Assembly: GCA_037384885.1 (NCBI GenBank)
Contig: JARRNO010000066.1
Span: 1 to 37,624, forward strand
Source: Acidobacteriota bacterium
GTDB taxonomy: Bacteria > Acidobacteriota > UBA4820 > DSQY01
DNA length: 37,624 nucleotides
Reading direction: 5' to 3'
Position numbers and translations under genes: made by a program. The notes beneath the pieces are model-generated. The model searched no databases and was not told where the DNA came from. It saw only the letters and a list, made by a program, of their open reading frames with translations. Shown piece by piece: positions 479-31,971 of this stretch. How positions within the stretch are numbered: the stretch's first letter is position 1; every line of letters starts with the position of its first letter.

Positions 479-715
479 TCCATTCCTCCTTTTAAGGTTT
501 CCGTGCTTTCGGTGCTCTTCCTGGAAATTTACACCCTGCCGCCGGAAGGGGGCGCCCACAAGCTCCGGCAGGCGTCCCGTGTCCCCGTATCCCCCTCCCA
601 GAGACCTATCGGATGAAACACATGAAATATATACCACGAGGAGAGCGGGAAAGCCAGCCCGAACCCGGCCGGAAACACGCGAAGGGAACACTCGGCCTCC
701 CGCCTTTTGCGGCGG

Positions 716-1077
716 TCAGCTTAGAAGACGCCAGATCCAGAATGTCAGGATGATCGTGATGAGCGTCACACAGACCGGGAGAAAGATTTTGAGCTCGAGG
801 TAGTGCCAGAAGGGCCGGCGCTTGAGCCACGCCACGGGGGCGTACAGCCAGGCGGCCAGACAGGCCAGAAATACTAAAATCCGCAGGGGGGAAGTCCCAG
901 TTCCGTGTGAGTTCCCAGGCCGGCTGGATCGGGAACGAGGTGATGTGCGAGGAGCATGACGGCGAGAAAGCCCAGCCACGCGCCGGCGTACCAGACGTGG
1001 TCCAGGAGCTTCCAGCCGGCGCTTTTCTCAACGGAAGGGATTGCTTCGGCGCGGGCTACGGCCCGTAACCCGCCCAT
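716..1077 (-). pseudogene. small 3-TM membrane protein gene, frameshifted at a G6/C6 homopolymer
   Basis: The ATG at 1075-1077 overlaps the cheC stop (TGATG). This frame gives 67 aa (WKLLDHVWYAGAWLGFLAVMLLAHH...) ending at TAG 874. The hydrophobic continuation LRILVFLACLAAWLYAPVAWLKRRPFWHYLELKIFLPVCVTLITIILTFWIWRLLS lies in another frame down to 716 and has no canonical start of its own. One extra base in the G run 886-891 would fuse the two into a protein of about 121 aa. Confidence 0.4.
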
Positions 1078-1709
1078 CAGGCCCCTCCCGGCCCGCCGTC
1101 GGAAATCGCGGCCCGGATCCCCTGGAGCATGGTGTCGATAGAGCCCGGGTCCGGGAGGAGAAACAGGTGGCCCTGAAAGCGCCCGTCACGGGACCTGAAT
1201 TCCGTCTGGATCACGAGCGCTTCGTTGCTGACCTCGGCGAGTTCGATGAGCAGGAGATCCACAACGGCCTGGGCCATGTCCATGGAGAAGGCCGGAATGC
1301 TGGGGATGAGGGAAATGTTCAGGATCCCGCTCACCGCGGAGAGATAGGCGGATCCGATAATGTTTCCCACTTCTTTCAGCGCGCTGATCTCCATCTCGCC
1401 CAGGGCCCGGCGTCCCTCCTTGCCGTTGAAGAGGATCTGGATGAGGTGGTCCGCCGCCTTGCGGGGCATGACGGCCAGCATGTTCCCCCGGGAGTCGCCG
1501 AAGACGCGGATAAAGAGTCCCAAGACTTCTTCCTCGGGACCGCCCAAGGCATCCGAAACCTTGGAGAATGGGACAAGTCTGACCTGGGGGACTTCCAGCA
1601 TAATGGTGCGCTGGGTCATCTGGTGGAGGGCTGTCACGGCGTGTCCGGCCCCCACGTTGCTGACTTCCTTAAGAGCGTCCAGCTCGTTTTCAGACAGTTT
1701 CGAGAACAT
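1077..1709 (-). CDS. cheC: chemotaxis phosphatase CheC
   Basis: 210 aa. Two CheC-type E-x2-N motifs are present (LKEVSNVGAGHA and LKEVGNIIGSAY). ATG at 1709 is preceded by GAGGAGG, and the gene overlaps the cheA 3' end by 20 nt. Confidence 0.8.
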   Translation of the reverse strand: MFSKLSENELDALKEVSNVGAGHAVTALHQMTQRTIMLEVPQVRLVPFSKVSDALGGPEEEVLGLFIRVFGDSRGNMLAVMPRKAADHLIQILFNGKEGRRALGEMEISALKEVGNIIGSAYLSAVSGILNISLIPSIPAFSMDMAQAVVDLLLIELAEVSNEALVIQTEFRSRDGRFQGHLFLLPDPGSIDTMLQGIRAAISDGGPGGA

Positions 1710-3615
1710 TTTCCTCCTCGGCCGGATCTATCCGCAACAGGGCGCGGCTGTCCATGATGTATGAGATTTCCCCGGTAGAGAGCAGCGCGCCTCCGATCCA
1801 GTACGGAACCATGTCGAGCGGAGCGCCCCAAGGCAGGATCACGACTCGCTCGCTTTGAAAGACACGCGACACGAGCAGAGCGCGTTCTCCGGACGGGGTG
1901 TCCAGGGAGAGAGCGAACCCCTCGCGCCCCACCGGCCTGGGCCGGAAACCGAGAACCGGAATCAACCCGTTATCGTGCTGGATACAGAGCCGGGGGCCCA
2001 CGCGCACCAGCGGGTGAGCGGCCAAGGCGTAGATTCGCCGCACCTGTGAGGTGGGCAGGCCGTAACGGGTCCAGCGGTCCCAGCCGAAGACGAGAATACT
2101 TGTGAGCGTGACAGCGCTGGGAACCACCAGAGTGAAGAGGGTCCCCTGCCCCTGCACGCTGTCCATTTCGAGGTAGCCGCCCAGTGCTTCCACAGCGGCG
2201 CGCACCACGTCGAGCCCCACGCCCCGGCCGCTGATGTCGGTGACTTCCCGGCGCGTAGAGAAGGCCGGAAGCGTGATCAGTTCCAGGATCTTGGCCCGGG
2301 GAAGCTTCTTGGACTGGGCGTCGGTCAAGAGTTCCCGTTTGACGGCCGCCTCCCGGATGGCGTTCTCATCAAGACCCCTGCCGTCGTCTCCAATCGAGAC
2401 GAGCAGCGCCTCGCCTTCCCGCTGCACGGTCAAAGCAATCGTCCCCTCCTCGGGTTTTCCGGCGGACTTCCGGGCGGAGGGGGACTCGATGCCGTGATCG
2501 GCCGCGTTTCGGATGAGGTGCGTCAGAGGATCGAGAAGGCGTTCCAGAAGCGTCCGGTCCAGCCTCTGGTCCGCGCCGGTCATTTCGAACTTCAACGGTT
2601 TTCCCGTTCGGGAAGACAGCTCTCGAACGGTCCGCGCCAGTCGCTGGCCGAGAATGTCGAAAGGCAGCAGCCGGATGGAAAGAATATGGTCGAAATGCCG
2701 GTTAAGCAAGGCCCTGTGGCGTTCGAGCCAGAAATGATGTTCTTGTTGTTCCGCCGGGGACAGTTCGGCCTCGAGGCGGTTGAGATGGTACAGAAGTTCC
2801 GAGCTTCCTGCGAGCAGATCATCGAGCGCGGCGGCGCGGATCCGGACGGATTGAACCACGCCCGGCTTTTCCGGCGCCGGAGAAGGGGCCCCGGGCATTT
2901 CCAGTTCGGTTTCCTCGACTTCAGGAAGTTCGCGCAGCGCCCTGGCCGCTTCTTTGATCCCCGGCCCGGCCGGAACGCGGAAAACGACGCTGCGGAGGGC
3001 CCGTTGCTGAACCTCCGCCAGGGAAGGGGCCATGGGACACGGGCCGAATTCTGCTTCGAGGTGCTGGGCCACGACGAGAAGCCTGGCGGCGGGAAGTGGT
3101 GAGCCGGGCTCGATGGTGACGGTCAGCTTTGCGGTCTCTTTGTCTGGCTCTTGAGATGCGTCCGATGGTTCCGTTGCGGCTGGAGGCGTTTCACCGGTCC
3201 CGGGCGCCGGCCCGGCCGGTTTTTCGGCCGAGGCCTCTTCGGGCAGGGCGGCCTCGAGCTGTATGATCACTTCATCCACCCGCGATGAAAGACCTTCGTC
3301 CTTCATCTCGGCCTGAACCACGTCCATAAGATCGTCCAGCATATCCACCGCCCGGAGAGAGGCCTCGATTGCGGGGGGAGCCGGATCGGCCCCGTCACGC
3401 CACACCCCCAGGATGGTTTCAAGGCTGTGGGCAAGCCTGGACGTCGCCTCGAAGTTCATGGAAGCCGCCATCCCCTTCAGCGAATGGGCGTGGCGGAACA
3501 ATTCGCGCACCTCTTCTGCGCCGGGGGCCGAACCGCCTTCCAGCGCCTCTCGGAGCGCGGCCACATGCTCGCGCCCGTCGCTCAGGTACATTTCAAGGTA
3601 CTTCTGAAGATCCAC
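1690..3615 (-). CDS. cheA: chemotaxis histidine kinase CheA
   Basis: 641 aa. Hpt motif HSLKGMAASM, N-box HLIRNAADHGIE, G-box GRGVGLDVV, and a C-terminal CheW-like domain. GTG start at 3615 follows AGGAGAGG. Confidence 0.93.
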   Translation of the reverse strand: MDLQKYLEMYLSDGREHVAALREALEGGSAPGAEEVRELFRHAHSLKGMAASMNFEATSRLAHSLETILGVWRDGADPAPPAIEASLRAVDMLDDLMDVVQAEMKDEGLSSRVDEVIIQLEAALPEEASAEKPAGPAPGTGETPPAATEPSDASQEPDKETAKLTVTIEPGSPLPAARLLVVAQHLEAEFGPCPMAPSLAEVQQRALRSVVFRVPAGPGIKEAARALRELPEVEETELEMPGAPSPAPEKPGVVQSVRIRAAALDDLLAGSSELLYHLNRLEAELSPAEQQEHHFWLERHRALLNRHFDHILSIRLLPFDILGQRLARTVRELSSRTGKPLKFEMTGADQRLDRTLLERLLDPLTHLIRNAADHGIESPSARKSAGKPEEGTIALTVQREGEALLVSIGDDGRGLDENAIREAAVKRELLTDAQSKKLPRAKILELITLPAFSTRREVTDISGRGVGLDVVRAAVEALGGYLEMDSVQGQGTLFTLVVPSAVTLTSILVFGWDRWTRYGLPTSQVRRIYALAAHPLVRVGPRLCIQHDNGLIPVLGFRPRPVGREGFALSLDTPSGERALLVSRVFQSERVVILPWGAPLDMVPYWIGGALLSTGEISYIMDSRALLRIDPAEEENVLETV

Positions 3616-3680
3616 GGCCTCTCCTGCCCTGCTTCAGGCGTCAAGTACCGGGCGGCCTCGACAGATCCCGGAGGGTCCCG

Positions 3681-4049
3681 TCAGGACTCCATGACGGCAT
3701 TCAGGACCTTAAGGACCTTTTCGGCGGAAAAGGGCTTGACGATAAAGTCCTTGGCCCCGGCGGCGATGGATTCGATCACGAGCGCTTCCTGGCCGATCGC
3801 CGAACACATGACGACGCGCGCGCCGTCGTGTGCCTTCAGGATTTCCCGGCAGGCTTCGATGCCGTCCATCTGGGGCATGACAATATCCATGGTGACAAGG
3901 TCGGGCGTCAGCGTTTTGAATTTCTCCACCGCTTCCTGCCCGTTCGCCGCTTCGCCCACCACTTCAAACTGTCCCGAGTTGGTGAGAATGTCCCTGATCA
4001 TGGCGCGCATGAACATGGCGTCGTCAACGATGAGAACCTTGAACGGCAT
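3681..4049 (-). CDS. cheY: chemotaxis response regulator CheY
   Basis: 122-aa single receiver domain: MPFKVLIVDDAMFMR..., phospho-acceptor context LVTMDIVMPQMDG, and KDFIVKPF. GGGGAGG lies upstream of the ATG. Confidence 0.93.
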   Translation of the reverse strand: MPFKVLIVDDAMFMRAMIRDILTNSGQFEVVGEAANGQEAVEKFKTLTPDLVTMDIVMPQMDGIEACREILKAHDGARVVMCSAIGQEALVIESIAAGAKDFIVKPFSAEKVLKVLNAVMES

Positions 4050-4491
4050 CGTTCCTCCCCGTATGGTGATGGCGGAGCACTTCGGCCATGGCTCGGCCCA
4101 GGACGGCCGGAATTTCGGAACAACGGATCACCGAAATCCATTCGTCATCCTTTGGAAAGAGTCCGGCCCACAGGCCGGATTCCTGCGTGTCCTGTAAATC
4201 CAAGTCGTTGTAGCTGATTGCGGCTTCCATCATGTCCACAGTCACTGTTAGATGGTCGAACGGCGGTCTGAGCCTCAAAAGAAGCGGCGTCCCACTGTGC
4301 TTCTCGGCCTTCAGAAGTGTGGCGCCGTCCACCACGGTCAGGAGCTTTCCCCGGTGGAAGACGGTCCCGAGCAGGTTCGGGTAATTCTCCGGAAGGCGGA
4401 AAATCGGCGTGGGCGGAAGCACTTCGGAGACGTCTTCGCCCGTCCAACCTACCAACCGGTTTCCAATTCGGGAGATCAAGAGCTTCTTCAC
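4024..4491 (-). CDS. cheW: CheW-like coupling protein
   Basis: 155 aa with a CheW fold pattern (LVGWTGEDVSEVLPPTPIFRLPENYPNLLGTVFHRGKLLTVVD). GTG start at 4491 follows GGAG. The 3' end overlaps the cheY start by 26 nt. Confidence 0.75.
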   Translation of the reverse strand: MKKLLISRIGNRLVGWTGEDVSEVLPPTPIFRLPENYPNLLGTVFHRGKLLTVVDGATLLKAEKHSGTPLLLRLRPPFDHLTVTVDMMEAAISYNDLDLQDTQESGLWAGLFPKDDEWISVIRCSEIPAVLGRAMAEVLRHHHTGRNDAVQGSHR

Positions 4492-4512
4492 GGCTGCTCC
4501 ACTCCGCTCATA

Positions 4513-5751
4513 CTACACCTTGAATCCTGAAACCAGTTGGCGGAGCGAATCCGCTCTCGCCAAAAGCGATCTGGTTTCGCGGTTGATTTCCTCGATGCTT
4601 GCTGTAATCTCTTCAGCCGCCGCCGAGACTTCCTCGCTTCCCGCGGCGTTGTCGGTTGCGATTTCCTGGATTTCTTCCATCTCCCGCATGAGGGCCGAGG
4701 CGGCTTCAGCCTGGAGAGACGCCTCCCGGGTGATGATCTTCACCGCTTCGCGGGTGTCCTTAACGCGGCCCGTAATGACAGAGAGCGCCTGGGTGACGGA
4801 AGAGACCTTCTCGCGTCCGTTTCTTGCCGCGTTCCGGGTCATTTCCATGCGCTCCACCACGTCCTGGGACCCTCCGGTGATGTCCTGGGCGAGCTTGGCG
4901 ATTTTGGCGGCCAGGTCCCGTGTGTTTTCTGCGAGGCGCCTCACTTCCTCCGCGACCACTTCGAACCCGCGGCCGGCTTCGCCTGCGCGCGCGGCCTCGA
5001 TGGTGGCGTTGAGGGCCAGGATGTGGGTCTGGTGGCTCACGGCCGTAATGCTTTCCACGAGGGTGTGAATCTGGGTGGCGTGTTCTTTAAAGGATTGTGC
5101 GTGGGAGGCCGTTTCTTCAACAAGACCCAGGATCGCCTCCATCGTTGCGGCGGCCTCTCCCGCCGCTTCCACACCGCCCTTCGCCTCCTTTTCCGACTGG
5201 ACCGCCTGCTGTTCCGTCTGCTCCACCTGGCTGACCACAGAGGCTGCGGAGGAAGAGACCTGGCGGCTGAGGTCCGTGGATTTCTCCACATTGGCCGCCT
5301 GATTTTCGGCGCCCTTGGCGGAATTCTGCATGTTCACCGCCACTTCACTGGTCGCCGTCGTGACTTCAGAGGTGGACACGCTGAGATTCTGCAGCGTTTC
5401 GAAGGTATGATCGGTCGTCTCCTTGACCTGCTGGATTATTTCGCGGAGGTTTCGCACCATGGACCGGAAGGTGTCGGCGAGTTGGCCCACTTCGTCGTCC
5501 CCCCTGACCGTGACTTCCTGGGAAAGATCGCCCTCGGCCATTTTGGCGGACACCCTGGCGAGCTGGCTCATGTTTCGGGTGAACATGCCCGCGACCACCA
5601 GGGCGAACACACCTGCCACCAAAAGACCGATAAAGATTTTAAGCCACATGTTCTGGAAGGTGTTGGCGGGAGAAAAGGAATCGAGCAGGATGCTCAGCAC
5701 CAGCGGAATGAAAACAGCCAGGATGAAAGCGAGACCCAGCTTCAATTTCAT
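4513..5751 (-). CDS. methyl-accepting chemotaxis protein with two TM helices, a very short loop, HAMP and a signalling domain
   Basis: HAMP domain after TM2 and a conserved signalling hairpin ([37 protein letters not shown]). The ATG at 5749-5751 overlaps the cheR stop (TGATG). The track start at 5754 is an upstream TTG. Confidence 0.9.
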
Positions 5752-6545
5752 CAACGTCCCCCTATCTTTCCATAAATCCGGCAGTCACGGTCCACGACCT
5801 CCCATTCCGGACGGGAGCCCCTGATCCGTTCGACGCGTCCGAGAACCAGCAGGCCGCCTACCACGAGAATCTCCGACATAGTCTTGATGATTCTCTCCTG
5901 CGCCTCTTCTGTCAAGTATACAAAAACATTGCGCAAAAAAACCGAATGCACCGCTTTACACGGTATTCCCCATCCCAGGTCGCAGCAGAGGGGATGAACG
6001 CGGCTGAAAACGGACGGCCCGGGAGCGGCCCTGCTGCCTGCTATTTTAAAGTATCCTTTCCAGTCGGCCCTGTCCACCCTTTGAAGGGCCTTGGCGGGGA
6101 CCGATCCTTCGCGGAGACCGGCCAGTGCGGGCTTGTAGCGGTCGGCGGCCAGCACCAGCCCAGGCAGTCCGGCTTCCTCCAGAAGGACGGCCAGGCTCAG
6201 TGCTTCCTCTCCCGTGGCGCAGGCGGCGCTGAGAATGACCGGGCGGTTCCAACGGAAGCGCGCGATCCTTTGACTGAAATGGTTCTGGAAGGACTCGAAG
6301 ACTTCCCCGTTTCGGAAGCATTCGGTGGTGCCCACAAAGAAACGGCGAAGGAAGCCTTCGCGTTCCCGGGGATGTGTATCGAGGTGGGAAAGGCAGGCCG
6401 CGGCGTCCGGCCATCCCTGGACCTGAAGGTAAGGCCTCAGGCGCCGCCCGAGAAATTCGGACCGGTAATCCTCCGCGCGCAATCCAAGATTTCGTTTTAA
6501 CCAGCGGCGCAGAAGACCGATGTCCGACGCTGCGACGTCGCTCAC
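5751..6545 (-). CDS. cheR: chemotaxis protein methyltransferase CheR
   Basis: CheR-type SAM methyltransferase pattern ([47 protein letters not shown]). Trimmed to the GTG at 6545, which is preceded by GGGAGG and overlaps the amidohydrolase stop (GTGA). Confidence 0.8.
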
Positions 6546-7969
6546 GCGGTTGACCCTCCCGCCGTGCAGGAAATCAGCGTCCAGTCCAGTGCCCGTTCTG
6601 GATGAAGGAGGTCGTCTGGGTGGGCGCCGGCGGCCAACGTGGAGGCGCCGGGAGGAATCATGTCCGAAGGGGGCGCCGCGGCTTGGAACGCCTGGTCCCA
6701 CGAAAGAGCCTCTCCGTGATCGGCGGTAAGGGCCGCCGAGAGCGTACGGCGCGGATCCGGCTCTTCAATGGGGAAGTCGGTGCCGAGAAGCAAGGGGATG
6801 CCCGCTTCCCGGAAGGACCCGAGCCGGTAGGCCCATTGGATTCTTTCACCCAGCCTTGACGGGGCCCACGGCATGTCCGACAGCCGGTGCGTGGGCTGCA
6901 CAGAGGCGGTGACGCCGAGATGCGCCATGCGCTGAAGATCTGCGAGGCGGACGATTTGCGCATGTTCTACGCGAAGTGACGGACGCTTCCGGGCCGCCTC
7001 CAGGCCGTCCAGGAGGCGTGTAACCGCCAGGTCGCCGATGGCGTGCACGGCGGCTCCGCTTCCCAGATCGGCGGCCAGCTCCAGTTTCCGGCATATGCTT
7101 TCCGCCGTTTCGCTCATCACACCGCGGTTGCCCGGATCGTCGCTGTAATCTTCTGACAGCGAGGCGCCTCGGCTCCCGAGAGCTCCGTCCATGAAAAACT
7201 TGAAGCCCCGCACCTTGAAGCCGCCGGCCAGTTCCCGCTTGGGAAGTGTGGGGCATGAGCCGGGATCTTCGTGGAGGTATCCGTCCAGCGCCGCCGGCAA
7301 AAGGTCTTCTTGGTCCAGCCGCTCGTAAAGGGGCAGGTGGGCCGACTGGAGGCCCATGTCGGTTACGCCCCAGAGTCCTCTGGCACGAAGGGCCTGCAGA
7401 GCCAGCAGGATCCGGTGGGTCAAGACTTCCCGGTCCGGATCCGGGACTGCCGCGGCGACGCGTTCCGCCGCACTTTCCATGAGAACGCCCGTCGGAATGC
7501 CGCCCTCCCTGATAATCCGCCCGCCCGCGGGGTCGGGAGTCTCCTTCGTCATCCCTGCCAATTCGAGCGCTTTGCTGTTCACCCATGCCGCGTGTCCGTC
7601 GATCCGCCAGAAAAGCGCGGGATGACCTTTCGTGACCGTGTCCAAATCCCGGGCGCGGGGGAAAGCTCCGCCCCAGAGATTCTGGTCCCAGCCAAAGCCT
7701 TGAAGCCAATCACCGTCGGAGATTCCGAAGGTGGCGGCGCCGGCGCGCGCCAACGCCTTGCTCAGCGAGGGGCAGCCCCGCAAGTTGACCTGCTCCAGGG
7801 CCGCGCCGAATGCGAGGACATGCCCGTGGTGATCCCAGAGGGGCGGAAAGAGCATGAACGAATCGAAGCCGGAGAGATCCTCGCGTCGGGCTGTGAACCG
7901 GGCACACCAAGACTCCGGCGGGAGTTGTCCGGCCTTTTGTCCACCGGTCCATTTCCAGAAGAGCGCCAT
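6542..7969 (-). CDS. metal-dependent amidohydrolase (Amidohydro_3 / YtcJ-like)
   Basis: 475 aa. An HxH-type motif sits near the N-terminus (LWDHHGHV). Also IDGHAAWVNSKALELAG, FKFFMDGALGSRGA, AVHAIGD, and the C-terminal LLLGTDFP. ATG at 7969 follows GGAGG. Confidence 0.75.
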   Translation of the reverse strand: MALFWKWTGGQKAGQLPPESWCARFTARREDLSGFDSFMLFPPLWDHHGHVLAFGAALEQVNLRGCPSLSKALARAGAATFGISDGDWLQGFGWDQNLWGGAFPRARDLDTVTKGHPALFWRIDGHAAWVNSKALELAGMTKETPDPAGGRIIREGGIPTGVLMESAAERVAAAVPDPDREVLTHRILLALQALRARGLWGVTDMGLQSAHLPLYERLDQEDLLPAALDGYLHEDPGSCPTLPKRELAGGFKVRGFKFFMDGALGSRGASLSEDYSDDPGNRGVMSETAESICRKLELAADLGSGAAVHAIGDLAVTRLLDGLEAARKRPSLRVEHAQIVRLADLQRMAHLGVTASVQPTHRLSDMPWAPSRLGERIQWAYRLGSFREAGIPLLLGTDFPIEEPDPRRTLSAALTADHGEALSWDQAFQAAAPPSDMIPPGASTLAAGAHPDDLLHPERALDWTLISCTAGGSTA

Positions 7970-16980: not shown

Positions 16981-18990
16981 TCACTGTTCGATCTGGAACT
17001 CGACAGGGTACGTCAGCTGCGTTTTAACAGGGACGCCGTCCTTTATGGCGGGAGAGTATCGAGTCTTCATGGCGGCTTCAATGCAGGCCTCGTCCAGCCC
17101 GTAATCGGGCTGGGGCCCGCGGATGACTTTGGCGTCTGTCACCCGGCCCTGTTCGTCGATGTCCACGGTAACGTAGACCGTTCCCTCCACTCGGTGCTGG
17201 CGGGCAAGGGACGTATAGCGAACGGAAACGCGCTTGATGACTTTGGGCTTGATGTCCACCTCCCAGATGTGGACGAAAGCTCCGGCTTTCACCTTGGGTT
17301 TCGGCACAGGAGCCTTCATGACAAGCTCGTTGTCGGCGGGAGGCTGCTGGAGGGCAGGACCCGGGGCGGCTGTTTCGTTGGCGGACGCGGAAGGAAGAGC
17401 ATTGGCCCGAGGCGGCTCGGAGGGGGTCCCGGAATCGCCAGCCCCCTTGCCGGCAGCGGCTTCATTGGGCTTCGGCGAAGGAGACGCGGCGGCGTTGCCA
17501 TCCGCCGGTTTCGGCGCGGCGTCTTCTTCTGCGTTCTTTTCTTTCGGAGCGCTCTCTTGCTGCGAACTGAGCTTGGCCAGAAGGGCCTGCTGCTGCCGGC
17601 GCTGATCAGCGATGGTTTGTCTGGCCTTGGCGAGAGCGTCCAGCATCTGCTGCCTCTCCTCTGTCGTTTTGGCATTCGGGAGAGAACCCTCTAGGCGTGT
17701 TTTCTGCTTTTCCGCGGCCGAAAGCTGCTTGGCGAGTTGCTGCTGCTTCTTCTGGAAGTTCTCTCTTTCTTTCGCCATCTGTGCTTCATACTGGGCGCGA
17801 AGCCGGGCCTCCTGAGCCCTCCTGGGCGCGATGACCAAAAACCATACGCCGGCAGCCGCGACAGCGATCACGGCAGCGGCGGCGCCTCCGATCTTCAGCC
17901 ACTTCCCAGCGCTTCCTCCTTCCGAGCCGGCTGCTCCATAGGAGGAGAAGAGCGAGCTCCCGCTTTCCGGGAACTCTCCCGAACGCTGCTTTTCGCCTCC
18001 CCCGGAGGGCGCGGCCTTGGCTGGGGCCTTAAACGGCGGAGCCTTGAGAAAAGGCGTCCGGTTCAGACTCAGGTGCCCGCGGTTTGTCTCGGCCTCCTGC
18101 TCATCCTGGCCCCGGAAAAGGGTATGCATCAGGAAGGCGATATTAAAAGTTGTGGGGCTGTATTCACCGGAGGCAATCAACGCGTCCAGATCGCTTTTCA
18201 TGGCCTGGAGATCGGTGTATGCCCCGGAGTGGTCCGGGTCAAGCCCCTTCCGGACGATCTCCATGATATCCGCCGGGGGCGGCTCCGCCAGTCCCAGACC
18301 CTTCGCGCCCTGCTCGAGGCGGGTCTGGAGATTGATCTGCTCGGGACCTTCGGAGCAAAAGGGCTCATGGCAGATGAACTCAAAAAGCAGCAATGCAAGC
18401 GCCTTGGGGTCCTGCGATGGGCTCAGGGGCTGCCCCTTGGGAAGCGTGGGAGGCAGATAGGCCCGATGGTGCGCGAGGATCGGCGAGCCGGCCAGGGAGG
18501 TGGTGTGGAGGTTTCGTATGGCCGGCGGGAAGAGCCGGACCTCGCCTTCGAAAGTTATCAGCACCTGGTGCGGGGAAAGATGGCCGAGGAATTCTTCCTG
18601 GGTGCCCACGGACACAGCGGCGCCGGCAAGACGTTCCGCCAGGTAGACGGCCTGGTCGGGTGCGAGCGGCACCCCTTCTTCGCGGCAGCGGCCCAGCATC
18701 TGGCCGAGGGTCCGGCCGAGGCGGAACTCACACACGTAGTAAAGCCGGCCGCCCAGTTCGCCGAAGTCGAGAAGGTTCAGGGTGTGGATATCCCGGATTT
18801 CCTTCCAGTGCTGGCAACGTGTCTTAATAAGTGCCACTGCGGCGGCGTCTTCTGAAAGCTCTGGCGAAAACCGGACGAGGAATTTCAGCTCCGGCGGGCC
18901 TTCCAGGTTGACAGCCTTGTACACGATCCCCAGGTCGAAACGCGAGTGCTCTTCGACCAACAGGTATTCGCCCCAGCGTTCCGGCTTCAT
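16981..18990 (-). CDS. membrane-anchored pseudokinase with coiled coil, Pro/Ala-rich spacer and a TonB C-terminal domain
   Basis: The N-terminal roughly 270 aa has a Hanks-kinase-like fold, but the Gly loop, VAIK Lys, HRD Asp and DFG are all absent ([20 protein letters not shown]). One TM helix ([25 protein letters not shown]) is followed by a coiled coil ([28 protein letters not shown]). The C-terminal 85 aa match TonB_C ([27 protein letters not shown]...[11 protein letters not shown]). Confidence 0.8.
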
Positions 18991-19019
18991 TACAGGCCCT
19001 CTTCAAAAGACACGGCCAG

Positions 19020-19047
19020 TTTAAACAGACCCGGCCGGTCCTGTCAA
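19020..19047 (-). promoter_or_regulatory. candidate sigma70 promoter of the pseudokinase-glnA operon
   Basis: On the minus strand, TTGACA (19047-19042), a 16-nt spacer, then TTTAAA (19025-19020). This lies about 30 nt upstream of the ATG at 18990 and downstream of terminator B. Confidence 0.45.
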
Positions 19048-19136: not shown

Positions 19137-19202
19137 ACAAAAAAAGAGAACGGGAGCTGGGGAGCTCCCGTTCAATAAGGGATGGGAGGGGTGTTCTGCC
19201 GA
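19137..19202 (-). ncRNA. candidate sigma54-dependent small RNA B (about 65 nt)
   Basis: The predicted start is about 12 nt downstream of the -12 GC at 19214-19215. The G-poor 5' part is ..GAACACCCCUCCCAUCCCUUAUU. It ends in a perfect 11-bp hairpin GAACGGGAGCU-CCCC-AGCUCCCGUUC (19148-19173) followed by UCUUUUUUU. There is no start codon or ORF. Confidence 0.6.
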
Positions 19203-19213
19203 CTCTTACTAAA

Positions 19214-19228
19214 GCAACATGCGTGCCA
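19214..19228 (-). promoter_or_regulatory. sigma54 -24/-12 promoter B
   Basis: The minus strand reads TTGGCACGCATGTTGCTT. This matches the consensus YTGGCACG-N4-TTGCW with correct GG/GC spacing. Confidence 0.7.
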
Positions 19229-19270: not shown

Positions 19271-19318
19271 GGCATGCCGTTTTGGCGCACTACGTGCCAT
19301 TATGGCGCACATGGCGCC
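19271..19318. promoter_or_regulatory. tandem 20-bp imperfect dyads, candidate enhancer-binding-protein sites
   Basis: The plus strand reads ggcatgccgttttggcgcac / tacgtgccattatggcgcac (15 of 20 identical), plus a third partial atggcgcc. On the minus strand these read GTGCGCCA-WAA-YGGCAYG, resembling the NtrC-type TGCACCA-N3-TGGTGCA. They sit 45-90 bp upstream of promoter B, and an AT-rich tract (19229-19255) lies between. Confidence 0.45.
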
Positions 19319-19388
19319 GGGACGGCAGGTGTGTCGAAAAGGTCTCACTTGCCGCCGCTTGAAAATTTGCCTTGGACCCGTCCAGTTC

Positions 19389-19439
19389 AAAGAAAAAGCC
19401 CCTTTCGGGGCTATAAGGAGGAATGGAGGGGGTATGAGG
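19389..19439 (-). ncRNA. candidate sigma54-dependent small RNA A (about 50 nt)
   Basis: The predicted start is about 12 nt downstream of the -12 GC at 19451-19452. The sequence is GCCUCAUACCCCCUCCAUUCCUCCUUAUAG, then hairpin AGCCCC-GAAA-GGGGCU (19397-19412), then UUUUCUUU. There is no ORF. Confidence 0.6.
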
Positions 19440-19449
19440 CAATATATTA

Positions 19450-19465
19450 TGCAAGCCGTGTGCCA
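19450..19465 (-). promoter_or_regulatory. sigma54 -24/-12 promoter A
   Basis: The minus strand reads CTGGCACACGGCTTGCAT, a near-perfect TGGCAC-N5-TTGCA. Confidence 0.7.
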
Positions 19466-19509
19466 GAAACGTGATTCCTGCCCCTTCGCAAACGCCGCGA
19501 TTCGCCCTG

Positions 19510-19518
19510 TGGTATACT
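19510..19518 (+). promoter_or_regulatory. possible extended -10 element for pyrK
   Basis: TGgTATACT lies 16 nt upstream of the pyrK ATG. There is no convincing -35, and it would give a very short leader. Confidence 0.25.
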
Positions 19519-19533
19519 CCCAACGGAGGTTGC

Positions 19534-20310
19534 ATGGCCCTTAAGACATTTCAGGTGACGGAAAACCGCGTGCAAGGTTCCTACGCCGCCATTACGGCTG
19601 AAGGGCCCGTCAGTCCTGCACTTCCAGGCCAGTTCTACATGTTGAGAGGAGACTGGGGCGCCGATCCTCTCTTAAGCCGTCCTGTGTCTATTTTGGCGCA
19701 AGACGTGTCATCTCGACAGATTCGCTTCCTGATAAAGGTGTTCGGTGAGGGCTCGCGCCGGCTGGCGTCGCTGAAGCCCGGCGAGCTGCTCTACGGGACG
19801 GGACCCTTCGGGAATACGTTTCCAGTGGATTTTCTTTCGCCGGAAGATCGTGTCCTGCTGGTGGGCGGCGGGGTGGGCATGCCGCCCATCGTCTACTTGG
19901 CGGAATCCACGAAAGCGATGGGAGTATCCCCCGTCGTTCTTCAGGGGGGGCGCACTGAAAAGGATCTCGTCCTGCTGGAGGAGCTGGCCGGCCTGAAGAT
20001 CGATCCGGTCCTGGCCACCGAAGACGGCAGCCGTGGCCGTAAGGGCCGGGTGACCGTCCTCCTGGAAGAGGCTCTGAAAGATGCGCCACGTGTGGTCTAT
20101 GCCTGCGGTCCGGAAGGCATGTTGCAGGCCGTGGCGGACGTTTGCCGCGGCAGAGTGGCCTGCTACCTGAGCCTGGAAGCCTACATGGCTTGCGGCTATG
20201 GCGTCTGCCTCGGTTGCGTCGTGTCCGTGCGGCAGGAGGAGGGAGGCCGCTACCGCCGTGTATGCAAGGAAGGGCCCGTCTTTTCGGCGGAGGATCTGAC
20301 ATGGCGGTAG
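19534..20310 (+). CDS. pyrK: dihydroorotate dehydrogenase B electron-transfer subunit
   Basis: 258 aa from the ATG at 19534 (GGAGG upstream). FNR-like fold (PGQFYMLR, RPVSI, GPFGN, LVGGGVGMPP) and a C-terminal 2Fe-2S motif (CGYGVCLGCVV...CKEGPVF). Confidence 0.9.
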   Translation: MALKTFQVTENRVQGSYAAITAEGPVSPALPGQFYMLRGDWGADPLLSRPVSILAQDVSSRQIRFLIKVFGEGSRRLASLKPGELLYGTGPFGNTFPVDFLSPEDRVLLVGGGVGMPPIVYLAESTKAMGVSPVVLQGGRTEKDLVLLEELAGLKIDPVLATEDGSRGRKGRVTVLLEEALKDAPRVVYACGPEGMLQAVADVCRGRVACYLSLEAYMACGYGVCLGCVVSVRQEEGGRYRRVCKEGPVFSAEDLTWR

Positions 20311-26570: not shown

Positions 26571-28859
26571 ATGCATGAAGCAATTGACATAGAAAAGCTC
26601 GGCGGGGTCAAGGAGGGGGAACGTAAAAAACCCCGGTCCAAGGAAGCCCGCCACGAGATCGCCTGCCAACCCGCCGACGAACGGATTCACAACTACAACG
26701 AGGTGGCGCTGGGGTATAACCCGGAAATTGCGGTGTCCGAGGCAATGAGATGCCTGGAATGTCCCAAGCCGCGCTGTGTGGTTGCATGCCCGGTCCACAT
26801 CGATATTCCCTCGTTCATCGGAAAGGTCTCCCGGGGGAAATTCGAAGAGGCGGCCGAGGACATCAGGCAGTACAATAATCTGCCGGCCATTTGCGGCCGG
26901 GTCTGCCCCCAGGAAAACCTCTGCGAGGCGGCATGCATCATCAACGACACCAATGAGGGCAACCCGATCGCCATCGGCCGCTTGGAAAGATTCTCCGCGG
27001 ACTGGCAGCTTCTCCACGGGAACCACAGCGGCAGCGAGGTCCACAAACGTCCCGCGACCGGGTGCAAAGTGGCCGTCATCGGCACGGGGCCCTCGGGCCT
27101 CTCATGTGCTGCGGACCTTGCAAAGATGGGACACTCGGTGGACATGTACGAGGCCCTGCACAAGCCGGGCGGCGTGCTGATGTACGGCATTCCCGAATTC
27201 CGGCTTCCCAAGGAGATCGTGCAAAAGGAAATCAGTTTCGTGAAGTCGCTCGGCGTGAATATCGAGCTGAACTGCGTGGTGGGGCGGACCATCCCGGTGG
27301 AAGAGATCATGGAGACCTACGACGCGGTCTACGTGGCCACCGGCGCCGGCTTTCCCAACATGATGAAAATCCCCGGGGAGAACCTCAACGGAATCTATTC
27401 CGCCAACGAGTTCCTGACCCGGGTGAATCTCATGCGGGCCTGGCAGCATCCAGCGGCGGGCACGCCCGTCCGCAAGCCCAAGAAGGCCGTTGTCGTCGGC
27501 GCAGGGTTTACCGCCTTCGACGTGGTGCGCATCGCGCTCCGGCTTGGCGCAGAAGAGGCGCAGATCGTCTACCGGCGGTCCCGTGAGGAAATGCCGGGCC
27601 GCGGCGAAGAGATCGAGCATGCCGAAGAAGAGGGCGCCAAACTGACGCTTCTAACCAACCCCGTGCAGTACATCGGGGATGAAAGGGGCTTTGTCAAGGC
27701 CGTGGAAGTTCAGAAGATGGAGTTGGGAGAGCCCGACTCCTCAGGACGGAGGCGCCCGGTTCCCATCGAGGGGAGCAATTACATCATCGATGCCGACCTG
27801 GTGGTCGTGGCCATCGGCCAGACGCCCAACGTGCTCATCCCTTCGAACCTTCCCGGGCTCGAAACGCGCTGGGGTTCCATCATCAAGGTAAACCGGGAGA
27901 CCTATATGACCTCGGTTCCCAAAGTCTTCGCCGGAGGGGACGCCATCACGGGGGCCGCCACCGTTATTCTCGCCACCCGGGCCGGGCGCGAAGCGGCGCG
28001 CTCCATCGACGCCTACGTGCGCATCCCAACCGAAGCTGGGCCGAACCCAACTGATCCGGCAGATAGGGGATTTCTCATGGAAGTAGTGGAACGATTCAAA
28101 GCATACCTGGAAGAACCCTTCGCCGAGTCTCTCATGAAGGATTTCGAATCCGCGCTCAAACATCTCGAGGAGGTGGATGCCTCGCCGTCCATGCAGGACC
28201 TCGTTACAGACATGGCCGGATTGCGGGAAAATCCCTCATTCCCGAGGAAGGCGGGGCTTTTCCTGTCTGCGTACCTGAAAATAGCGGCCCGTCCAGAGTC
28301 TATCGACCTGGAATCTTTCGAAGACACGCGCCTGGAAGGTCTCGGCGCTTGCATGGACAAAGCCGATCTCACCGTCAAGGGTGATGCGGGCAACTATACG
28401 GGCGCCTTCATGCTGTCCGGAACCCTCACCGTTGAAGGGGACGTGGGGGACTACACCGGATTTTCCATGGAAGGCGGCACGCTGCACGTCAAGGGCCTCT
28501 CGGAAAGCCACACCGGCCACTCCATGTCCGGCGGGCGCATCGTGGTGGACCGCAATGCGCACGATTTTACCGGCAACCGCATGACGGGCGGCTACATCCG
28601 CATCCGGGCGAACGCCGGCTATTCGACCGGCTACCGCATGGTCGGCGGGTTTATCGAGGTCCGGGACTTGGCATGGGACCTGGCCGGCGAAGAAATGATC
28701 GGAGGCCGCATCCAAATCGGCGGCCACGTGGGACACGACCTTGGTTATTCCATGGTCGGCGGCGAACTCGCCGTCAACGAGAAGAACAGCGAAACGCCTC
28801 GTGTCAGAGCAAAGGGGGGACAGCTCACTGTGGTAGCGCGCGGAAAAAAGCGACGCTGA
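26571..28859 (+). CDS. NfnB / GltD-like NAD(P)H flavin oxidoreductase fused to a C-terminal GXGXG beta-helix domain
   Basis: Residues 1 to about 470 have Fe-S Cys motifs (CLECPKPRCVVACP, CGRVCPQENLCEAAC), an FAD site (VAVIGTGPSGLSCA), a second Rossmann fold (VVVGAGFTAFD) and AGGDA. Residues 600 to 745 (nt 28368 onward) are repeated G-x-x-G-x-x-M-x-GG-x-I/L turns (GDAGNYTGAFMLSGTLTVEG, GDYTGFSMEGGTLHVKG, HTGHSMSGGRIVV, FTGNRMTGGYIRI...). These resemble the C-terminal domain of glutamate synthase large subunit and FwdC. Confidence 0.8.
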   Translation: MHEAIDIEKLGGVKEGERKKPRSKEARHEIACQPADERIHNYNEVALGYNPEIAVSEAMRCLECPKPRCVVACPVHIDIPSFIGKVSRGKFEEAAEDIRQYNNLPAICGRVCPQENLCEAACIINDTNEGNPIAIGRLERFSADWQLLHGNHSGSEVHKRPATGCKVAVIGTGPSGLSCAADLAKMGHSVDMYEALHKPGGVLMYGIPEFRLPKEIVQKEISFVKSLGVNIELNCVVGRTIPVEEIMETYDAVYVATGAGFPNMMKIPGENLNGIYSANEFLTRVNLMRAWQHPAAGTPVRKPKKAVVVGAGFTAFDVVRIALRLGAEEAQIVYRRSREEMPGRGEEIEHAEEEGAKLTLLTNPVQYIGDERGFVKAVEVQKMELGEPDSSGRRRPVPIEGSNYIIDADLVVVAIGQTPNVLIPSNLPGLETRWGSIIKVNRETYMTSVPKVFAGGDAITGAATVILATRAGREAARSIDAYVRIPTEAGPNPTDPADRGFLMEVVERFKAYLEEPFAESLMKDFESALKHLEEVDASPSMQDLVTDMAGLRENPSFPRKAGLFLSAYLKIAARPESIDLESFEDTRLEGLGACMDKADLTVKGDAGNYTGAFMLSGTLTVEGDVGDYTGFSMEGGTLHVKGLSESHTGHSMSGGRIVVDRNAHDFTGNRMTGGYIRIRANAGYSTGYRMVGGFIEVRDLAWDLAGEEMIGGRIQIGGHVGHDLGYSMVGGELAVNEKNSETPRVRAKGGQLTVVARGKKRR

Positions 28860-28880
28860 ATCGAACGAAAACACCACGCA

Positions 28881-28908
28881 GGGGAGGCCTTCGGGCCTCC
28901 CTTTTTTG
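28881..28908 (+). terminator. intrinsic terminator after the nfnB-like gene
   Basis: GGGAGGCC-ttcg-GGCCTCCC is a perfect 8-bp stem, followed directly by TTTTTTG. Confidence 0.75.
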
Positions 28909-28983
28909 TCGGAAAACAGGCCGGCCGGATGGGGAACAATTGGCGTCTCCTGCTGTTAGTGAAATTAAGCAGGGAGGGGTGGC

Positions 28984-29610
28984 ATGCGGTCTCTTATTTT
29001 CCTGGCGCTGGCCGTCCTGGCGGCGGCCTCGCCGGTTTTTGGGAAGGAGCCCCCAATCGTGGACGCCTTAAACCGGGATGAAGTGATAACTTTGGGCGGG
29101 GGATGTTTCTGGTGCCTCGAAGCGGTTTTCGAAGAGGTCAAGGGCGTGCGGCGGGCGGTTTCGGGCTATTCCGGCGGCACCGTGGCGGATCCCAGCTACC
29201 AGGATGTCTGCAGTGGTGAAACGGGCCACGCCGAAGTGGTCCAGGTGACCTTCGATCCCAGCGTTATCAGTCTGAAAGAACTCCTGTCCGTCTTCTTTAC
29301 CATTCACGATCCCACAACCCTCAACCGGCAGGGCGCCGACCGGGGAACCCAGTACCGCTCGATCGTGCTTTACAGGAACGAGGCGCAGAAGGCCGCGGCG
29401 GAAGCGGTGATCCGCGAAATCGAAGCGGCGAAGATCTATGGATCGCCCATCGTGACCCAACTTGTTCCCTTCAAAGCCTTTTACGAGGCCGAGAGCTACC
29501 ACCAGGACTATTACCGGACCCACCCCTCCCAGGCCTACTGCCGTATCGTCATCTCGCCGAAGGTGGCGAAGTTCCGCGAAAAATTCAGAAGGCTGATGAA
29601 AAGCCCCTGA
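28984..29610 (+). CDS. msrA: peptide-methionine (S)-S-oxide reductase with a signal peptide
   Basis: 208 aa. N-terminus [20 protein letters not shown], active site [24 protein letters not shown], and [26 protein letters not shown] lies before the ATG. Confidence 0.92.
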
Positions 29611-29716
29611 TTCCCTTTGCCGCTCCCTTCCCGAGCGGCCTGTTCACGTCAACTCAAACGCTATAAGTTTTGAAAGAGATACCTTCCCGTACTGCGAAAC
29701 GGGATGGGAGGGAACG

Positions 29717-30821
29717 ATGACGGCGAAGGTGGATCTTTCCGCCGAAACCAAGTACGGTCTCCTGCTCGAAATCGAACACAAAGTGAGGGGGACGCTCGAT
29801 CTGGACTCCATCATGAACCACCTCCTGGATACCATCGGGTCGGTCATGGATTATGACGCCGCCGGGATCTTCATCCTCAACCGGGGAGCGGTCCTCCCCC
29901 ATCGCGGGCCGCCGGGCAATGTCATCGCCGGGATCGCCTTGAGGGGTTTCGACCTGGGGCCGCCCGAGGCCGATCCCATGCTGTCCGAAGGGAAGGGCGT
30001 CATCGGCCGGGTCATCCGCACCGGGGAGACAGTCCTGATCTCCGATGTGGCGAAGGATCCGGACTATATTGCCGGCAGGAAGAGAACCCGTTCCGAGGTG
30101 GCGGTGCCCATTTGCCATCAGGACCGCGTGATCGGCGCCCTCAACGTGGAGAGCGACCGTCCCGGCGCATTCAGCGAGAGGGACCTCGGCATCCTGAACT
30201 TCTTTGCAGACGCCACCGGAATCTCTATCGAAAGGGCCGTCCTTCACCGGCAGATTCTGGAGAAGAAGTGCATGGAGGAGCAGCTCCGCCTCGCCCGCGA
30301 CGTGCAGGCGCGCCTGCTTCCGGCCGCCCCGCCGGGAATTGCGGGATACGACATCGACGGATTATGCATTCCCGCTTACGAAATCGGCGGAGACAGCACA
30401 TGGCCGGCCGGCTCAACAAATTTCTCCTGGACGACTCCAATACGGCCACTTTCGTGACCGCCGTCTACGGAACTCTTGATCCTCCGAGCGGAGAGTTCCG
30501 CTATTCGGTGCTCGGCCATAATCCGCCCCTTCTTCTCCGCGCCGACGGCAGGTGCGAAGAGCTTCGAGCGGGCGGGCTGCCTCTGGGGATTCGTCCGCGG
30601 GTGTCGCCCCTGATGGGAGAGGCCCGCCTGCGGCGGGGAGACGTGCTCGTCCTCTATACGGATGGAGTGGTGGAAAGCGGTGGACCGGAAGGGCCCGATT
30701 TCGGACTGGAGCGGCTGGTCGATGTTCTCAGGCATTCACTGCAGCAAAACGCCATGGGCATGATCAAAAATGTGGTCCAGGCCACGACTTTACGCTTGTC
30801 GTGGTCAAGCGTACCCCCTGA
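29717..30821 (+). pseudogene. GAF-domain PP2C (SpoIIE-type) phosphatase, disrupted and spread over three frames
   Basis: Frame 1 carries the GAF domain (GVIGRVIRTGETVLISDV, EVAVPICHQDRVIGALNVES) and the PP2C start (ARDVQARLLP...AYEIGGD) to about 30394, then nonsense. Frame 2 from about 30400 carries the middle of PP2C (RLNKFLLDDSNTATFVTAVYG, LGHNPPLLL, VLYTDGVVE). Frame 3 from about 30780 carries the end (HDFTLVVVKRTP, stop at 30819-30821). The GGD(Y)YD...DVSGKG...AAL segment is missing. Confidence 0.7.
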
Positions 30822-30861
30822 TCGGCGGAGGAACCGGGGGAGTTTCACCGTGGTGCCCCCG

Positions 30862-31971
30862 TCACCGCCCCGCCGCCTCCGGACTTCCGAACAACGCCGG
30901 CTGCAGGGTGCGTCCGTCAGCCATCCCGGCGCCTTCCCGCTCGAGGTCCAGCAGCTTCTGCTTTCTCCAGAGACCGCCTCCATAGCCGCCAAGGTCCCCG
31001 TTTTTGTTGACGACCCGGTGGCAGGGGATGACGATGGCGATCCGGTTCATTCCGTTGGCCGTGCCCACGGCGCGGCAGGCGCCGGGTGAACCCACCGCAA
31101 GGGCGAGATCCTGGTAACTGCGCGTTTCCCCGTAGGGGATTTTCAAGAGTTCGTCCCAGACCTGCTGCTGAAAGGGGGTTCCGGGGTAAAGCAGCGGCAG
31201 GTCGAATGCACGGCGGTTGCCGGAAAAATACTCGGAAAGCTGCCGGCGGAGATCTTTCAGATGGACATTCGCGCCCGGCACGACCGCCCGTTTGAATCGC
31301 TTCTGTATTGTTTGAAATTGGGCCTCCAGCCTCCGCCGGTCTGTGAATTCCAGCAGGCACACGCCCTCCTGGGTCGAGCCGGCCACGAGCGGACCCAGGG
31401 GACTGTCGATCCAGGAAAGGAGAACACAGTCCCCGTCCGCCGAACGGCCGGGCGGAATACCGAATGCTCTCTGGAAGGCGTCGCGGAATCCGCTTAAGGA
31501 CTCGTAGCCGTGGTCCAGCGCGGCGCCGTCAAGGGATTCTCCCTTGCGGATCCCTTCCAGCGCCCGGCCAAGCCGGAGCCCCCTGCAGAACGCCTGGAAG
31601 GTCATGCCGAAGTTCGCCTTGAAGTAGCGCCGGACCCTCACGGGGTCCACTCCGGATTCCCTCAAGTCGCCGTCGGAAATCCTGCGGGAGGGATCGGCTT
31701 CCGCTTGCTCGATCAGCGACCGGACCCATTCGGGCGGCCGTCCGGCCGTTTCCATCGGCCTGCAACGCTTGCAGGGGCGGAATCCAGAAAAGAGGGCCTC
31801 GCGCGCGGTGCCGAAAAAACGGCGGTGTGCAGGCAGGGCCCTTTTCGCCGGACATGAGGGCCGGCAAAACACGCCGGTGCTTGTGATGCCCACAAAGAAG
31901 ATCCCGTCATAGTCCGCGTCGCGTCGTTCGAAGGCCTGTTCCATCTCTTCCAGAGGGGGCAATACAGGCAC
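30862..31971 (-). CDS. ada: bifunctional Ada: Zn-finger methylphosphotriester acceptor, AraC HTH, and O6-methylguanine-DNA methyltransferase
   Basis: Ada Zn motif (FCRPSCPAKR...FRPCKRCRP), AraC-type HTH (GYESLSGFRDAFQRAFG), and MGMT active site (IPCHRVV). Start set to the GTG at 31971, 5 nt after AAGGAGG. The track ATG at 32025 is an alternative. Confidence 0.85.
   Translation of the reverse strand: MPVLPPLEEMEQAFERRDADYDGIFFVGITSTGVFCRPSCPAKRALPAHRRFFGTAREALFSGFRPCKRCRPMETAGRPPEWVRSLIEQAEADPSRRISDGDLRESGVDPVRVRRYFKANFGMTFQAFCRGLRLGRALEGIRKGESLDGAALDHGYESLSGFRDAFQRAFGIPPGRSADGDCVLLSWIDSPLGPLVAGSTQEGVCLLEFTDRRRLEAQFQTIQKRFKRAVVPGANVHLKDLRRQLSEYFSGNRRAFDLPLLYPGTPFQQQVWDELLKIPYGETRSYQDLALAVGSPGACRAVGTANGMNRIAIVIPCHRVVNKNGDLGGYGGGLWRKQKLLDLEREGAGMADGRTLQPALFGSPEAAGR

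Follow-up and report, generated by a model that had tools for sequence, protein, structure and literature searches.

The question raised by this locus is whether a small RNA, sRNA-B, regulates two neighboring genes, msrA and the gene of a GAF-SpoIIE phosphatase (hereinafter GAF-PP2C), by pairing with their ribosome-binding sites (RBSs). An earlier note, made from the sequence, had predicted sRNA-B in the window (the whole 37.6-kb stretch of DNA analyzed here), had pointed to perfect complementarity between its C-rich seed and the Shine-Dalgarno (SD) sequences of both genes and, adding a match between the sibling sRNA-A and a gene coding for a DUF4190 protein, had proposed a small trans-acting regulon.

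The sRNA-A/sRNA-B locus and its conservation

Between a gene coding for a TonB_C-domain protein (16981-18990, minus strand) and pyrK, which probably starts at 19534, there is a gap of 540 bp with two orphan terminators on the minus strand. The features in this gap are:

19139..19200, minus strand: sRNA-B, predicted at ~62 nt, 5'-GGCAGAACACCCCUCCCAUCCCUUAUUG- followed by a terminator hairpin and a U-tail, with its probable ends deduced from the sequence
19173..19148, minus strand: sRNA-B terminator, 11 pairs plus a T-run; an orphan, without a minus-strand gene upstream
19179..19193, minus strand: C-rich seed CACCCCUCCCAUCCC of sRNA-B, read directly (plus strand GGGATGGGAGGGGTG)
19213..19228, minus strand: sRNA-B sigma-54 promoter TGGCACGCATGTTGCT, a perfect consensus match
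19275..19310, no strand assigned: direct repeat TGCCGTTTTGGCGCAC / TGCCATTATGGCGCAC, 20 nt apart (repeat family D2)
19388..19440, minus strand: sRNA-A, ~50 nt, CCUCAUACCCCCUCCAUUCCUCCUUAUA and then a terminator (19412..19397)
19450..19465, minus strand: sRNA-A sigma-54 promoter TGGCACACGGCTTGCA, a perfect consensus match, conserved in the homologues

Scanning the window for TGGCAC-N5-TTGCW with at most one mismatch recovered two matches, both of them perfect, namely the sRNA-A and sRNA-B promoters, each positioned directly upstream of a C-rich stretch that is in turn followed by an orphan terminator. Downstream of the sRNA-B promoter, GGCAGAACACCCC begins ~12-14 nt past the -12 GC, and the spacing of the -24 GG and -12 GC elements, together with the distance to the RNA 5' end, fits that of a sigma-54-dependent sRNA. 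The fold of sRNA-B (-21.6 kcal/mol, z -5.8) consists of a single terminator hairpin with the seed linear and unpaired; the sRNA-A seed (CCCCCUCCAUUCCUCC) is also unpaired in its fold. The direct repeat lies 50-100 nt upstream of the sRNA-B promoter, and the repeat form TGCC(A/G)TT(A/T)TGGCGCAC occurs upstream of both sigma-54 promoters, with related copies at 19583-19598 and 19691-19700 upstream of that of sRNA-A; four relatives (L250, L252, L268, L294) display GCGCCA-N3-TGGCGC-like palindromes in the equivalent position. By their placement, the repeats at 19275-19310 probably constitute a candidate site for an activator of sigma-54 transcription, and Pfam scans of the window ORFs detected no sigma-54 activator domain.

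As to the surrounding genes, pyrK probably starts at ATG 19534 (SD GGAGG) and not at GTG 19471, and a 36-codon ORF at 19434-19544 with an apparently perfect SD is the antisense of the sRNA-A seed and probably non-coding. The TonB_C-domain gene lies immediately next to glnA and is preceded by a conserved sigma-70-like promoter of its own; its 669-aa product combines a conserved N-terminal region of ~310 aa without a Pfam match, a low-complexity linker and the C-terminal TonB_C domain.

A pattern scan across 185,579 species genomes returned 57 matches, nine of which are true sRNA-B homologues, i.e., show TTGGCA-N6-TTGCT, a gap of ~12 nt, GGCAGAACACCCC, a C-rich tract and then a terminator. All nine belong to Acidobacteriota MAGs (loci L244, L250, L252, L257, L264, L268, L274, L280, and L294) and make up, with the present genome, the 10 genomes counted below. 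The tandem pair is present in each of these nine MAGs, with sRNA-A a few hundred nucleotides upstream of sRNA-B, and it directly precedes the TonB_C-domain gene wherever the sequence extends that far downstream. TTGGCA-N6-TTGCT is conserved in 10/10 genomes and GGCAGAACACCCC is invariant across the same 10/10; the C-rich tract is always present. Within the seed, CACCCC is invariant and the remainder reads CUCCCAUCCC here, CUCCCAUUCC in five MAGs and CCUCCCACCCCC in four, and a core, CCAUUCCUCC, is common to sRNA-A and sRNA-B in five MAGs. The terminator stems vary by clade yet stay paired (GAACGGGAGCU/AGCUCCCGUUC, GCGGGGGCC/GGCCCCCGC, and GCGGGAGCC/GGCUCCCGC), and the seeds are unpaired in all folds. 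These folds are of single sequences; RNAalifold on a MAFFT alignment missed the terminator because indels were misaligned.

A genome scan with the TonB_C-domain protein gave no matches, and two Thermoanaerobaculum-type relatives (L018, L019) possess the TonB_C-domain gene without the sRNAs upstream. The GlnA of the window is 80-86% identical to those of Acidobacteriota MAGs, some of which are labelled Thermoanaerobaculia or Aminicenantes, and the locus was found only in low-depth DNA metagenome runs from salt marsh and sediment.

The perfect sigma-54 promoter, the orphan terminator, the unpaired C-rich 5' region and the conservation alongside sRNA-A in 10 genomes support the earlier prediction of sRNA-B. 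We hold it highly probable that sRNA-B is a real sRNA gene, and its anatomy makes a small transcript very likely. Going by these sequence features, we conclude that sRNA-A and sRNA-B represent a real, undescribed family of putatively sigma-54-dependent sibling sRNAs.

The msrA, GAF-PP2C, and DUF4190 sites

The candidate target region lies on the opposite strand and comprises the following features:

28880..28903, plus strand: terminator of the upstream GltD/GXGXG operon
28972..28981, plus strand: msrA SD GGGAGGGGUG, a 10-nt perfect complement of CACCCCUCCC (site GGGAGGGGTG), 2 nt before the ATG at 28984
28984..29610, plus strand: msrA, 208 aa (PF01625, E 1e-65; from the translation; locus L001)
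29682..29712, plus strand: predicted GAF-PP2C leader hairpin in which CCUUCCCGU (29682-29690) pairs with AUGGGAGGG (MFE -25.3 kcal/mol, z -2.4)
29701..29712, plus strand: GAF-PP2C SD region GGGAUGGGAGGG, a 12-nt perfect complement of CCCUCCCAUCCC (site GGGATGGGAGGG), 4 nt before the ATG at 29717
29717..31089, plus strand: gene coding for the GAF-SpoIIE (RsbU-like) phosphatase, split over two frames (Pfam)

The seed at 19179-19193 and the 12-nt and 10-nt complements at the two leaders are exactly as they had been reported, including their distances from the respective start codons. The 12-mer of the GAF-PP2C leader has no further copy in the window, even allowing one mismatch, and the msrA 10-mer has one other exact copy (29521-29530, on the antisense strand inside msrA). 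Both SDs are the most G-rich and extended ones in the window, where most genes have plain GGAGG-type SDs. The terminator at 28880..28903 implies that msrA begins a new transcription unit and, since no further terminator was detected from msrA to GAF-PP2C, the two genes are possibly transcribed as one mRNA, on which both sites may therefore lie. Two elaborations of the pairing were discarded: an origin of the GAF-PP2C leader from the sRNA-B gene by inverted duplication, for which local alignment gave the 12-mer only, and pairing with msrA in two parts by an sRNA lengthened at its 5' end (AGAGUC), given that conservation and the sigma-54 spacing put the start at ~GGCAG.

Pfam places the GAF domain in 29717-30457 and the SpoIIE/PP2C domain in the frame of 30112-31089. 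The gene is intact (426 aa) in loci L001 and L002; the copy in the window is without 142 nt at 30397/30398 and ~25 nt near 30781-30789, resulting in the frameshift. Loci L001-L003 and L301 (GCA_037384925.1) are of the same species as the window (99-100% identity), and the indels by which the assembly differs from L001, L002, and L301 may reflect true strain differences or mistakes of assembly. For instance, the GT2 gene of the window is without 117 nt (23712/23713) relative to same-species contigs, and a 1-nt indel within 26571-28859 leaves one ORF of 762 aa where GltD (494 aa) and the GXGXG protein (260 aa) are otherwise separate. The N-terminus of MsrA (window 28984-29050) is signal-peptide-like, which suggests an exported methionine sulfoxide reductase.

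The sibling match invoked for the regulon was also seen: sRNA-A has a perfect 13-nt match (AAGGAGGAAUGGA) at window 479-491 (minus strand), ending directly at the DUF4190 ATG 478, and among 30 RBSs this is the best sRNA-A site (duplex energy -25.7, cofold -18.3). The DUF4190 gene probably starts at 478 rather than at 691, and it adjoins a complete chemotaxis cluster (window 1077-6701, minus strand) coding for CheC/CheX, CheA, CheY, CheW, MCP, and CheR.

The sRNA pair and the two candidate targets differ in their phyletic reach. A scan of genome contigs for msrA recovered only matches of at most 67% identity, all from other phyla, and a GltD-anchored scan of metagenome contigs recovered L164-L176, which keep RsgA-PyrK2-GltD-GXGXG without msrA or GAF-PP2C downstream and on which the sRNA was not found. 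Homologues of GAF-PP2C above 57% identity are same-species only (P0001, 73%), and the leaders of those at 55-57% are unrelated to the one in the window. No orthologue of GAF-PP2C or msrA was recovered from any sRNA-B-bearing MAG. With both genes missing from the syntenic position in the relatives, the pair looks like a lineage-specific insertion, and as such it cannot supply conserved targets of the conserved sRNA-B, though the two could be species-specific ones. The msrA and GAF-PP2C leaders are identical among the same-species copies, and L001-L003 and L301 consequently carry no comparative information.

The TonB_C-domain gene, glnA, and pyrK were considered as conserved sRNA targets and rejected, their pairing being weak or unconserved; against the TonB_C translation initiation region it is weak and variable (-12.8 to -23.2). 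A separate observation concerns MAG QNF170220_bin_258 (L010 ~2240-2285, minus strand in the locus), whose pyrK RBS GGGGGUGGAGGGAAU pairs with its own sRNA-B at -34.0 and its own sRNA-A at -32.6. In L250 and L294 the pairing is less strong, and the window does not show it (-13.2), so that pyrK is not a conserved target.

Proposed action and competing explanations

Our main reading, to which we assign a probability of roughly 0.5, is that a real, sigma-54-driven sRNA-B acts by anti-SD pairing, with the msrA and GAF-PP2C sites as its best candidate targets in the window. The sigma-54 promoter would drive a ~62-nt RNA, one half of the conserved tandem pair upstream of the TonB_C-domain gene and glnA, whose 5' half is C-rich, predicted to be single-stranded, and similar to the 16S rRNA 3' tail; by anti-SD pairing, this RNA would cover strong G-rich RBSs and block binding of the 30S subunit. 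Its individual parts are not equally firm. That sRNA-B acts by anti-SD pairing is, from its seed and structure, slightly more likely than not; that msrA and/or GAF-PP2C are its true targets is, on the matches described here, plausible but less likely than not.

The 16S rRNA 3' tail reads AUCACCUCCUUU. Set beside this commonly known sequence, the seed AACACCCCUCCCAU resembles the tail, and because of this resemblance an extended SD such as that of msrA would be expected to match the seed. The strength of the pairing was evaluated over a set of 30 gene starts with Pfam support annotated in the window. By the contiguous measure, i.e., the longest perfect match of the 17-nt seed to the 30 RBS windows, GAF-PP2C (12 nt) and msrA (10 nt) stand clear of the next RBS (6 nt). 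Shuffled 17-nt seeds give a maximum of at least 12 nt with P = 0.003 (0.015 with the CCCTCCC core kept) and a second best of at least 10 nt with P <= 0.005. When sRNA-A and sRNA-B were both run against the two window strands, with their own genes excluded, six matches of at least 10 nt were recovered, of which three sit at true RBSs (msrA, GAF-PP2C, and, for sRNA-A, DUF4190), an excess over the background rate of ~1 match per 25-40 kb of strand. In ~100 kb of related loci from the nine MAGs with sRNA-B homologues, the cognate seeds give a comparable background of 10-nt matches, none of which falls at a genuine RBS. Plain duplex energies likewise make outliers of both sites (msrA -29.1, GAF-PP2C -28.7, next RBS -19.3).

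These rare perfect runs, the clustering at RBSs and the contrast with the relatives count against the strongest rival, according to which sRNA-B is real but the complementarity is incidental: the two most G-rich SDs would match any C-rich, 16S-tail-like RNA, with no regulation involved. Several results nevertheless lean toward this explanation, which we rate as a serious contender at somewhat less than even odds. On the msrA and GAF-PP2C RBSs, sRNA-B seeds from other species reach -26 to -29, almost equal to the cognate seed, and sRNA-A reaches -21.8 and -23.2, in keeping with the caution, voiced in the earlier note itself, that G-rich SDs inflate such matches. Binding to the 16S tail is itself predicted to be strongest at four RBSs, those of msrA, GAF-PP2C, Ada, and CysMetPLP. 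Equal duplex energies are reached at non-RBS places (e.g., 29544, minus strand; 25859, minus strand; 19841, plus strand) and, in the relatives, a crude gene call gave 59 RBS regions, of which 6 pair with their own seed at -26 kcal/mol or below, at least one of these six being an artefact. The restriction of the target genes to one lineage, against the conservation of the sRNA, points the same way.

The accessibility-aware energies, obtained by cofolding the entire sRNA and 100 nt of mRNA such that intramolecular structure is counted, also favor an incidental match. Among the 30 RBSs, GAF-PP2C ranks first (-14.7) and msrA sixth (-11.2), and neither is an outlier, with MCP (-13.7), Ada (-12.8), GltD (-11.7), and CoaBC (-11.6) falling between them and no gap to the rest. 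Hence, on whether unrelated RBSs match the seed equally well, a point raised in the earlier note, the 30 window RBSs give a divided answer: in contiguous length they do not (12 and 10 against 6 nt), but in cofold energy nothing separates the two sites from the rest. The complementarity is thus real, and it exceeds chance by the contiguous-match measure only. Of the proposed small trans-acting regulon, what is supported is that, of the RBSs in the window, those of msrA and GAF-PP2C match the seed over the longest contiguous runs; the regulon itself is not established, and the accessibility-aware energies remove the outlier status of the two sites. More generally, a C-rich seed may pair perfectly with an RBS over 10-12 nt in a GC-rich genome with strong SDs; such a match hints at regulation but does not suffice as evidence of it.

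A second rival places the function of the GGGAUGGGAGGG tract in cis. In the predicted leader fold, the GAF-PP2C SD is masked by its own hairpin with CCUUCCCGU 13 nt upstream, which could serve as a switch of translation or as a thermometer-like element, the resemblance to the seed being a by-product of both elements being anti-SD-like. The 9-pair outer stem would cover the whole SD (5 of 200 shuffles fold equally well), would explain why the G-tract is longer than a normal SD, and would reduce the net gain from sRNA binding. The z-score is modest, however, and all available copies are identical and thus show no covariation; moreover, the hairpin leaves the msrA match unexplained, and masking in cis is compatible with pairing in trans. 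We regard this explanation as rather unlikely.

The hairpin also bears on the GGGAU extension of the GAF-PP2C match, which had been singled out as noteworthy. This emphasis did not survive: the extension is accounted for by the leader hairpin as well, and the seed bases with which it pairs, AUCCC, are the least conserved part of sRNA-B and occur in none of the other nine homologues, of which five have AUUCC and four ACCCC. The variability of AUCCC fits either recent co-adaptation or coincidence.

The weakest rival denies sRNA-B a role in trans and sees in it either an attenuator-bearing leader driven by sigma-54 or a CT-rich insulator, in both cases serving the downstream TonB_C/glnA operon. 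It draws on the position of sRNA-B ~150 nt upstream of the TonB_C-domain gene in the same orientation, in the genomes that include that region, and on a reported enrichment of CT-rich anti-SD motifs near sigma-54 promoters, the motifs silencing RBSs farther downstream when transcription reads through (bioRxiv 10.1101/086108). This rival is improbable given the strong terminator with its U-tail, the separate sigma-70-like promoter TTGACA-18-TAAACT (19047..19018) between this terminator and the TonB_C-domain gene (with TTGACA/TTGACG and a -10-like box visible in the equivalent place in relatives), the weak and variable seed pairing with the TonB_C initiation region, and the tandem organization, in which the first unit is followed by the second alone.

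Returning to anti-SD action by sRNA-B, a more ambitious version of it can be sketched, which we offer as speculative and unlikely to hold in full. The siblings would be the first riboregulators to be defined in Acidobacteriota, with sigma-54 promoters and seeds mimicking the 16S tail. Once their activator fires, possibly on a nitrogen signal in view of the neighboring glnA, the two RNAs would vie with ribosomes for extended G-rich SDs, including those of a bicistronic msrA/RsbU-like phosphatase stress operon and of DUF4190.

Comparison with known sRNA systems

In a limited literature search, no described sRNA regulator was found for Acidobacteriota, an abundant phylum of soil and sediment. The sRNA-A/sRNA-B pair could hence open a way to studying post-transcriptional control in these bacteria, most of which are uncultured: it offers a conserved family absent from Rfam, with a clear anatomy of promoter, seed, and terminator, and with concrete candidate targets.

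The Qrr1-4/5 sRNAs of Vibrio are sigma-54-dependent siblings with a common seed. In this sibling organization they are like sRNA-A and sRNA-B. The Pseudomonas sRNA NrsZ is induced by NtrB/C under nitrogen limitation from an RpoN promoter (PMC4253122). Both NrsZ and Qrr combine an RpoN promoter with upstream activator sites; sRNA-A and sRNA-B have sigma-54 promoters and, upstream of them, repeats that are candidates for such sites. The seeds of NrsZ and Qrr, however, are gene-specific, whereas that of sRNA-A/B is anti-SD-like. Homology to Qrr or NrsZ was not detected: there was no Rfam match even at E-values up to 10, and no similarity in sequence or structure.

In the mode of pairing, the closest parallel is with the alpha-proteobacterial NfeR1, in which ultraconserved unpaired anti-SD motifs (CCUCCUCCC) occlude the translation initiation regions of many mRNAs, with a link to nitrogen status (PMC10746234). 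No Rfam match at the gathering score was found for the sRNAs, and the best sub-threshold match is to this very family of anti-SD sRNAs (alpha-r14/NfeR1, ar14; RF02344), which like sRNA-B has an unpaired anti-SD motif; at 17.5 bits against a gathering score of 58.8, sRNA-B is not a member. NfeR1 has three hairpins with three seeds (CCUCCUCCC in each), in contrast to the one linear 5' seed and terminator of sRNA-B, and its promoter is NtrC-repressed without a sigma-54 signature, unlike that of sRNA-B; the phyla also differ. In Firmicutes, RsaE/RoxS and other UCCC-motif sRNAs use unpaired C-rich motifs to pair with the SDs of several mRNAs (PMC2790875, PMC6158497), but these motifs lie in loops, the RNAs are not sigma-54 dependent and, coming from another phylum, they show no homology to sRNA-B.

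Finally, Levy et al. described short CT-rich anti-SD motifs at sigma-54 promoters that pair with the SD (bioRxiv 10.1101/086108). These insulators act in cis: motif and silenced SD share a transcript and are at most ~25 nt apart, with the motif upstream. sRNA-B is arranged otherwise, in that a strong terminator comes after its C-rich stretch and its candidate SDs are 10 kb away. By these comparisons, sRNA-B would be an sRNA of the anti-SD type that is driven by sigma-54 and deployed in a sibling arrangement, falling outside each of the named families.
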